Notes: generated from the letters alone by a model not told the origin. 64,000 nt of DNA from Escherichia coli (GCF_003334405.1 NZ_QOWM01000004.1); one strand, 5' to 3'. Positions 17,105 through 18,469 are shown, numbered from the stretch's first letter. Translations and numbers: made by a program.

Positions 17105-18469
17105 ATGTCTTTCGATTCTTTGGGTTTAAGCCCTGATATCCTGCGCGCCGTTGCCGAGCAGGGTTACCGTGAACCCACCCCTATTCAGCAGCAGGCGATC
17201 CCTGCGGTGCTGGAAGGCCGCGACCTGATGGCTAGCGCCCAGACCGGCACCGGCAAAACAGCGGGCTTTACGCTGCCGCTGTTGCAACACCTGATCACTC
17301 GCCAGCCGCACGCCAAAGGGCGTCGTCCGGTACGTGCGCTCATTCTTACCCCGACCCGTGAACTGGCGGCGCAGATTGGCGAAAACGTCCGTGATTACAG
17401 CAAATACCTGAACATTCGTTCGCTGGTGGTGTTTGGTGGTGTGAGTATTAACCCGCAGATGATGAAACTGCGTGGCGGCGTTGATGTGCTGGTGGCAACC
17501 CCGGGACGTTTGCTGGACCTGGAACATCAGAATGCAGTGAAGCTGGATCAGGTTGAAATCCTCGTCCTCGATGAAGCTGACCGCATGCTCGACATGGGCT
17601 TTATCCACGATATCCGTCGCGTGTTAACAAAACTACCTGCGAAGCGCCAGAACCTGTTATTCTCCGCGACCTTCTCTGACGATATTAAAGCCCTGGCGGA
17701 AAAACTGTTGCACAACCCGCTGGAAATCGAAGTGGCACGCCGCAATACCGCGTCTGATCAGGTGACCCAGCACGTTCACTTTGTCGATAAGAAACGCAAA
17801 CGCGAATTGCTGTCGCACATGATTGGGAAAGGGAACTGGCAGCAGGTGCTGGTGTTTACCCGTACCAAACACGGCGCTAACCATCTGGCTGAACAGCTCA
17901 ATAAAGATGGCATCCGTAGTGCGGCGATCCACGGCAATAAATCGCAAGGTGCGCGTACTCGTGCGCTGGCTGATTTTAAATCGGGCGATATTCGTGTACT
18001 GGTGGCAACTGACATCGCTGCGCGCGGCCTGGATATTGAAGAGCTGCCGCACGTCGTCAACTATGAACTGCCAAACGTACCTGAAGATTATGTCCACCGT
18101 ATCGGGCGTACCGGTCGTGCGGCTGCTACCGGTGAAGCGTTGTCGCTGGTGTGTGTTGATGAACACAAACTGCTGCGTGATATCGAAAAACTGCTGAAAA
18201 AAGAGATCCCGCGCATTGCGATTCCGGGCTATGAGCCGGACCCGTCAATCAAAGCCGAACCGATCCAGAACGGTCGCCAGCAACGTGGCGGCGGCGGTCG
18301 TGGGCAAGGTGGTGGTCGCGGTCAACAGCAACCACGCCGTGGGGAAGGTGGCGCAAAATCTGCAAGCGCGAAACCTGCAGAAAAACCGTCTCGCCGCCTC
18401 GGCGATGCCAAACCGGCAGGCGAACAACAACGTCGCCGCCGTCCGCGTAAACCTGCCGCTGCGCAGTAA
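17105..18469 (+). CDS. rhlE: ATP-dependent RNA helicase RhlE (DEAD-box) with basic RG-rich C-terminal tail
   Basis: ORF 454 aa; GTGKT, DEAD, SAT motifs seen. Confidence 0.95.

Follow-up and report, generated by a model that had tools for sequence, protein, structure and literature searches.

Among the closest counterparts known for the helicase considered here are the two RhlE proteins of Pseudomonas aeruginosa. RhlE1 (PMC8266600, PMC11260450; Hausmann et al. 2021, 2024), which is 51% identical to E. coli RhlE, resembles it in having a short, basic and disordered tail directly after the second RecA-like domain (RecA2), and removal of this tail raised the Kd for RNA from 2.2 to 84 nM and abolished unwinding, with the ATPase activity unchanged (18.2 vs 17.6 per min) (PMC11260450). 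The RhlE1 tail provides RNA binding that does not depend on ATP. RhlE2 too ends in a disordered extension, which binds RNA, enhances unwinding and drives phase separation. When the C-terminal intrinsically disordered region (IDR) was taken from RhlE1 or RhlE2, the ATPase activity stayed the same and unwinding was lost or fell by ~97%, and the truncated proteins formed no droplets in vitro at 2.5 µM; the isolated tails bound RNA and phase-separated with it, and the two could be swapped for RNA binding (PMC11260450). The resemblance of these Pseudomonas tails to that of E. coli RhlE does not extend to homology of sequence. That of RhlE1 is Lys-rich, in contrast to the Arg/Gly/Gln-rich E. coli tail with its tri-RG motif, and the two share no recognisable sequence, while that of RhlE2 is far longer (its truncations remove residue 385 or 434 to ~640), contains a Gly/Glu-rich stretch of ~50 amino acids and mediates an interaction with RNase E.

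RG-rich low complexity linked to RNA binding and to condensates is likewise a feature of the eukaryotic RGG/RG domains (Dbp2, Ded1/DDX3, DDX4/Vasa and LAF-1). In eukaryotes, arginine methylation by PRMT enzymes regulates RGG domains, and E. coli is not known to have an enzyme of the PRMT type. Unstructured basic tails are also present on Mss116p and CYT-19, where they tether the helicase core non-specifically to large RNAs (as cited in PMC3814787). Within E. coli itself, the paralogous DEAD-box helicase RhlB has a short, unstructured and positively charged C-terminal extension (CTE, residues ~398-421), which binds RNA non-specifically, is needed for the RNA-dependent turnover of ATP and forms the site at which RraA makes contact (PMC3814787). 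The RhlB CTE is Arg-rich and shorter than the RhlE tail, RhlB needs RNase E for its activation, and bioRxiv 10.1101/2020.08.05.239012 reports that RhlB forms no condensates, unlike E. coli RhlE.

For E. coli RhlE, foci or condensates are reported, citing Hondele 2019, in PMC7414142, bioRxiv 10.1101/2020.08.05.239012 and bioRxiv 10.64898/2026.03.23.713837, the last of which describes the foci as arising largely on overexpression. The protein colocalises with DeaD condensates, and it is found enriched among large crosslinked particles. It can be purified on heparin and, as free protein, stays out of a native gel (PMC3814787), behaviour which fits a highly basic surface. That the tail exists, that it is disordered and that it is connected with RNA binding and condensates is already in the literature, in the searchable part of which we found no experiment that truncated or mutated the tail of E. 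coli RhlE.

The rhlE gene and the boundary of its tail

The DNA analysed was a window of 64,000 nucleotides from E. coli, in which the rhlE coding sequence occupies 17105..18469 on the plus strand (454 codons plus stop). This is the only long sense-frame ORF there, and its 454 amino acid translation is the ATP-dependent DEAD-box RNA helicase RhlE. Identical alleles of the 1365-nt coding sequence occur in RefSeq E. coli genomes, annotated as "rhlE: ATP-dependent RNA helicase RhlE", and rhlE was found in 5424 of 5426 complete E. coli genomes. Against the NCBIfam RhlE equivalog NF007882 the protein scored 981.6 bits, well above the curated full-length cutoff of 743, with residues 1-454 aligned to profile positions 1-456 of 456, in agreement with the initial annotation of the gene as RhlE; the tail by itself matched profile positions 389-456. 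The protein fell below the cutoffs of both NCBIfam subgroup models used, scoring 622.9 bits against 925 for RhlE2 (NF053710) and 559.4 against 750 for RhlE1 (NF053711), the latter alignment ending at residue 382 and excluding the tail.

Both RecA-like domains of the core were readily identified. [quoted passage not shown] Past residue 339 no Pfam domain covered the sequence, even at E <= 10, and most homologues of solved structure align only as far as residue ~365-375.

The AF2 model, in which low pLDDT is a proxy for disorder only, showed no secondary structure after residue 364 but an isolated bridge residue near 370; pLDDT was above 90 across most of the core, still 91 for residues 371-380, 70 for 381-390 and 42-50 for 391-454, where there was neither helix nor strand. 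Residues 365-389 (18197..18271, plus strand) are nearly invariant across 116 enterobacterial orthologues and are not of low complexity, and a form of this stretch, [FY]EPDPSIKxEPI, recurs in some distant RhlE-like proteins (for example the database entries P0248, P0122, P0134 and P0154). This conservation, together with the drop in pLDDT that follows, sets residues 365-389 apart as a conserved post-core linker, probably packed on the core or adjoining it, from the tail proper (residues 390-454, 18272..18466, plus strand). The tail had previously been placed at 18250-18469. The end of that range is correct, 18469 being the last base of the stop codon, and its start is not, since 18250 falls on the third position of codon 382, 1-2 nt off the reading frame, and since the first ~8 residues so included (IKAEPIQN, pLDDT 70-91) belong to the linker, the low-complexity sequence beginning at G390 (nt 18272).

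In a charge-hydropathy plot the tail fell among disordered sequences (H = 0.29, boundary 0.49) and the core among folded ones (H = 0.47, boundary 0.42). With the low pLDDT of the tail, with no coverage of it by a Pfam domain or a confidently predicted fold and with most solved homologues ending before it, this supports the prediction that residues 390-454 are intrinsically disordered, as the initial annotation had thought likely and had proposed to check by disorder prediction. Composition, sequence entropy and charge, described below, delimit the same polycationic stretch.

Composition of the tail

Residues 381-454 are made up of 20% Gly, 18% Arg, 13.5% Gln, 13.5% Ala and 9.5% Pro, with 19 Lys or Arg residues to 5 Asp or Glu and 3 hydrophobic residues. 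From residue 389 to 454 there is one hydrophobic residue in 66 (L432), the pI is 12.0 and the net charge at pH 7 is ~+14, compared to ~+7 for the whole 380 residues of the RhlE core. Binomial tests against the core composition gave P = 8e-8 for the Gly and Arg content of the tail (28 of 66 residues), P = 8e-11 when Gln was included (37 of 66) and P = 2e-10 for at most one hydrophobic residue in 66. The Shannon entropy of 40 amino acid stretches reached a minimum of 2.74 bits, a value found in none of 2000 shuffles of RhlE (mean 3.30 ± 0.09), and the stretch concerned, which begins at G390, is the lowest in entropy among the 15,976 contained in the 45 ORFs of at least 200 amino acids in the 64 kb window. 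The presence of a Gly/Arg-rich, low-complexity C-terminal stretch is thus beyond chance, and the peptide originally quoted for it matches the translation exactly. A low-complexity domain flanking the core is also one feature of the phase-separating DEAD-box ATPases described by Hondele et al. 2019, and RhlE shares this feature with them.

The tail proper can be divided into three parts: a Gly/Arg/Gln repeat module (residues 390-413, 18272..18343, plus strand), in which the number of repeats varies widely between enterobacterial genera; a variable middle module rich in Ala, Lys, Pro, Ser and Glu (residues 414-442, 18344..18430, plus strand), which contains a 15-bp tandem repeat and direct repeats in its DNA; and a C-terminal basic motif (residues 443-454, 18431..18466, plus strand) distinguished by its conserved R..PR[KR] pattern.

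How far the tail deserves the name "RG/RGG-rich" depends on the motif counted. The usual expressions for these motifs (Thandapani et al. 2013) are RGG(X0-4)RGG[(X0-4)RGG] for the di- and tri-RGG forms and RG(X0-4)RG(X0-4)RG for tri-RG. One tri-RG motif (R394-G406, within the repeat module) is present, and the label stands to that extent; there is a single RGG (394-396), the di-RGG and tri-RGG expressions found no match in E. coli RhlE and it does not, strictly, belong with the RGG-box proteins. Among the 116 enterobacterial orthologues, tri-RGG was found in none, di-RGG in 4, tri-RG in 18 and di-RG in 70, and since tri-RG occurs in so few of them, this motif is not itself conserved. The E. coli tail thus differs from the eukaryotic RGG/RG domains both in having one RGG and in having no aromatic residue at all. 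In phmmer alignments to Dbp2 (8ark) and DDX42 the match ran on into the tail, as far as query residues 418 and 429, probably through similarity of composition.

Tail variation within E. coli and among its relatives

In 3132 E. coli genomes the 220-nt tail matches that of the window at 99% identity or more, and in a further 1881 at only 90-95%, compared to only 13 genomes in which the whole of rhlE falls into the 90-95% band. Tail length was examined in 60 genomes taken at even steps down the ranking: 43 had 220 nt, 13 had 217 nt, 3 had 223 nt and one had 178 nt, so that roughly one quarter of those sampled have gained or lost a single Gly, and a 205-nt allele was also found. Alignment of the alleles placed these single-codon indels in runs of GGC and GGT codons on the plus strand (18287-18298 and 18308-18316), the Gly missing from the ST131-type allele being in the GGC run and that added in the O157:H7 allele being in the GGT run. 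TRF scored no tandem repeat at the DNA level for the Gly/Arg repeat and reported only the 15-bp repeat at 18351-18379, with which a 15-bp in-frame deletion in strain F2_81 coincides, and a 42-bp in-frame deletion in strain 58-3 lies between two 19-nt direct repeats (family D1; 18380-18398 and 18422-18440) that are 42 nt apart. Every E. coli length variant examined was in frame and kept the terminal motif, which was retained in all 5 of the indel or substitution alleles examined. Over the 99 core codons directly upstream, the five alleles had 4-16 synonymous changes and at most one non-synonymous change relative to the window, compared to 7 synonymous and 4 non-synonymous changes over 73 codons in a tail allele of equal length. 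The greater amino acid change in the tail than in the core, along with the in-frame indels, indicates that constraint on the sequence of the tail is relaxed, with reading frame and charge preserved.

It was considered whether this unusual stretch could owe its composition to an overlapping gene, or to an RNA or DNA element, rather than to the RhlE frame, as alternative ORFs at 18216..18527 (plus strand) and 18245..18517 (minus strand) cover the region and the minus strand has a terminator-like hairpin at 18405..18391. Most of the allelic substitutions are silent in the reading frame of rhlE and the indels come in multiples of 3, which argues against this, as do the database proteins that match the +1 frame (P0026, P0041, P0019 and P0055), which are frameshift variants of rhlE. 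Terminator-like signals were no more numerous than expected by chance (3 compared to 2.4 ± 1.7), promoter-like matches were also at chance level and no Rfam match was found inside the tail-coding DNA. The open alternative frames are explained by the GC-rich (64% GC) DNA of repetitive codons, and we have rejected an overlapping gene, an explanation which we regard as extremely improbable. REP-type repeats were seen downstream of the rhlE stop codon.

In the 116 non-frameshifted enterobacterial orthologues, identity to E. coli RhlE is mostly 91-98% in the core and ranges from 38 to 96%, mostly 40-65%, in the tail, the length of which varies from 67 to 125 amino acids; Kosakonia, Franconibacter and Cronobacter have expanded AKPAGE...PRR-like units in the middle module. 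Despite the variation, the net charge of the tail is always +12 to +18, it never has more than 5 hydrophobic residues and R..PR[KR] is found within the final 16 residues (an RRRRPRKP-like terminus) in 111 of the 116. We also compared 141 representatives of diverse RhlE-like proteins (overall identity to E. coli RhlE 47-77%, with a single outlier at 36%), whose tails range from 30 to 450 amino acids and show no sequence similarity that can be recognised between them. Of these tails, 93% are net-positive, with median values of +0.117 charges per residue and 0.10 for the hydrophobic fraction. Restricting the comparison to the 114 tails whose hydrophobic fraction is below 0.15 showed a modest but significant excess of Lys and Arg in the final 10 positions (mean 3.03 compared to 2.28 expected, the observed sum being reached in none of 5000 random samplings). 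Divergent sequence combined with constant charge and few hydrophobic residues points to selection acting on composition and not on sequence, and at the level of sequence the pattern is the signature of an IDR selected for its bulk physicochemical properties.

The same data bear on the proposal that the tail is a neutral and dispensable appendage, generated by slippage and without a selected function. Its amino acids do turn over faster than those of the core, indels are frequent both within and between species and rhlE is dispensable in rich medium. The phenotypes known for rhlE are that it suppresses the cold-sensitive defect of deaD and modulates the defects of srmB and deaD in ribosome assembly. 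Drift of this kind would not be expected to hold the charge within +12 to +18 over a two-fold range of length, to exclude hydrophobic residues consistently, to leave the great majority of diverse family tails net-positive or to keep the sampled E. coli length variants all in frame with the terminal motif intact, and truncation of the homologues costs them unwinding (PMC11260450). Neutrality therefore appears very unlikely.

Possible roles of the tail in RhlE

We consider that the tail (residues ~390-454) is probably a disordered polycationic extension on a two-RecA DEAD-box core that acts as a non-specific tether for RNA. Its composition, predicted disorder and evolutionary pattern were observed directly in this work, and by analogy with its homologues we infer that the E. 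coli tail may tether RNA and promote condensation. The tail would contact RNA backbones electrostatically, independently of sequence and of ATP, and so would keep a core of low processivity close to its substrate and raise the local concentration of RNA; affinity for RNA would be increased and duplex unwinding made productive, with the intrinsic ATPase rate unchanged. Being multivalent and charged, the tail could by the same contacts promote RNA-dependent condensation, visible as foci, where protein and RNA are both locally abundant. The properties under selection would be net charge, scarcity of hydrophobic residues, flexibility and a terminal basic patch, and selection on such bulk properties would leave the Gly/Arg/Gln repeats free to grow and shrink by slippage. 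That tails of this type give RNA tethering or condensates was part of what had been suggested for this region, and the homologue truncations (PMC11260450) and the reported foci of E. coli RhlE speak for it.

Condensation could, alternatively, be the function that is selected, with the tail scaffolding RNA in DEAD-box-marked granules and its affinity for RNA a by-product, which we see as possible, though as the less probable reading. The foci or condensates reported for RhlE and not for RhlB in PMC7414142 and bioRxiv 10.1101/2020.08.05.239012 fit with this, as does the colocalisation with DeaD, and the RhlE1 and RhlE2 tails are required for droplets at 2.5 µM and phase-separate with RNA when isolated (PMC11260450). 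The tri-RG motif and the Gln-rich, Gly-rich make-up are typical of phase-separating low-complexity domains. The tail is, however, short (65 amino acids) and without aromatic residues, which usually strengthen RGG-driven condensation. Moreover, bioRxiv 10.64898/2026.03.23.713837 has the foci appearing on overexpression of RhlE, and the truncated homologues lose unwinding at nanomolar protein in dilute solution, where there are no condensates (PMC11260450). This loss of unwinding without condensates argues for tethering as a function in its own right.

What electrostatic tethering accounts for less well is the end of the tail, as the near-invariant RRRRPRKP terminus is more suggestive of a specific linear motif than of generic charge, and if it is such a motif, pure electrostatic tethering would not explain it. 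The tail might then be mainly a docking module for acidic partners (RNase E, RraA, poly(A) polymerase or ribosomal particles), with RNA binding secondary, a suggestion that we find rather doubtful. It would explain why the terminal motif persists in 111 of 116 orthologues, and in all the E. coli alleles examined, when the remainder of the tail has diverged, and there are precedents for it: the CTE of P. aeruginosa RhlE2 is necessary and sufficient for interaction with RNase E, the positively charged CTE of RhlB is the binding site for RraA, and E. coli RhlE itself binds RraA in EMSA, with rapid precipitation on mixing (PMC3814787), and binds both RNase E and poly(A) polymerase in vitro. [quoted passage not shown] A terminal basic cluster also recurs in unrelated tails of the family, so that generic binding of polyanions fits as well as a specific motif does. 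A tail-mediated link of E. coli RhlE to the degradosome, at which the initial annotation had hinted, is therefore unproven, and partner binding by the terminal motif is best treated as a secondary possibility, which does not exclude RNA tethering.

The Pseudomonas work places specificity in tails of this kind. The details added here, namely the constancy of charge over a two-fold range of length, the conserved terminal motif and the lineage-specific in-frame Gly indels, are mildly new and could guide the design of clean mutagenesis. On a more speculative and, we think, unlikely reading, the tail would be a three-part device made up of the polymorphic and slippage-prone Gly/Arg/Gln repeat, an AKPAGE/PRR spacer that expands freely and RRRRPRKP as a docking SLiM. 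If this were true, the length of the repeat could tune RNA affinity or the threshold for condensation, RRRRPRKP would dock one particular partner (RNase E, RraA, a ribosomal precursor or PAP I, for example), and it would be this motif, and not bulk charge, that sets the functional specificity of RhlE in the Enterobacteriaceae.

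Length variation and frameshifts in the tail-coding DNA

The part of rhlE encoding the Gly/Arg-rich tail is polymorphic in length within E. coli, and the differences are in frame, falling at window positions 18287-18316, 18351-18379 and 18380-18440 in comparison with four rhlE loci from other strains (L001-L004). In an even sample of 60 genomes, ST131-type alleles lacking one Gly codon were found in 13 and the O157:H7 allele with one additional Gly in 3, while deletions of 15 bp and 42 bp in the tail were rare and lay at positions matching short direct or tandem repeats.

Frameshift variants of 500-545 amino acids were also found among the database proteins named RhlE (P0026, P0041, P0019 and P0055), one cluster of such variants containing 43 members. 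In all four, translation departs from the rhlE frame at a point within the DNA encoding the tail and continues in another frame (window 18299-18527), and for P0026, P0019 and P0041 the exit is within or just 3' of the Gly/Arg codon repeats. The frame read by P0026 beyond the normal rhlE stop is that of a +1 frame ORF in the window (18216..18527). These variants may be sequencing errors at the repeats or real slippage pseudogenes.

Repeats and neighbouring genes around rhlE

A perfect 9-bp inverted repeat, ATGCCGGGC-TAT-GCCCGGCAT (18476-18496), begins 7 nt past the rhlE stop codon and coincides with a 10-bp repeat reported by TRF. It was not called as an intrinsic terminator by the scan because no T-run follows it, and stabilisation of the mRNA 3' end is a candidate role. 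Further into the rhlE-ybiA intergenic region are REP-type (repetitive extragenic palindrome) sequences (18520-18640), including a minus-strand match to Rfam ES036 (CssrF) at 18543-18585, which at 43.3 bits exceeds the gathering score of 37.6, and sub-threshold partial Rfam matches to naRNA4 (CssrE) on both strands at 18589-18640.

The DNA 3' of rhlE differs between strains, as seen at L002, L003 and L005 against the window. In the window rhlE is followed by ybiA, encoding the NADAR family N-glycosidase YbiA (18701-19183, minus strand), as it is in strain 58-3; the sole annotation at this position in an ST131 genome is a NADAR pseudogene fragment, and strains F2_81 and 190693 have differing hypothetical proteins there. 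This suggests an insertion or replacement hotspot beside the REP cluster. Also downstream is a large ORF (19168-21453, plus strand), presumably a DinG-like helicase, and upstream are ORFs transcribed divergently from rhlE (15207-16888, minus strand) which we take to resemble an HlyD-type membrane-fusion protein and a TetR-family regulator, all recognised by translation alone.

Matches to the tail and the linker preceding it

Most PDB alignments obtained with phmmer end by approximately residue 380 of RhlE, but those to the eukaryotic DEAD-box proteins Dbp2 (8ark_A) and DDX42 (8hk1_E and 7evn_E) extend into the tail, to query residues 418-429, an overlap which likely reflects shared Gly/Arg-rich composition rather than homology. 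Directly C-terminal of Helicase_C, the linker (amino acids 365-389, window 18197-18271) carries a conserved [FY]EPDPSIKxEPI motif, modelled by AlphaFold2 with intermediate to high confidence. Some distant RhlE-like proteins with otherwise unrelated tails share the motif, and this segment may represent an extension of RecA2 specific to the family.
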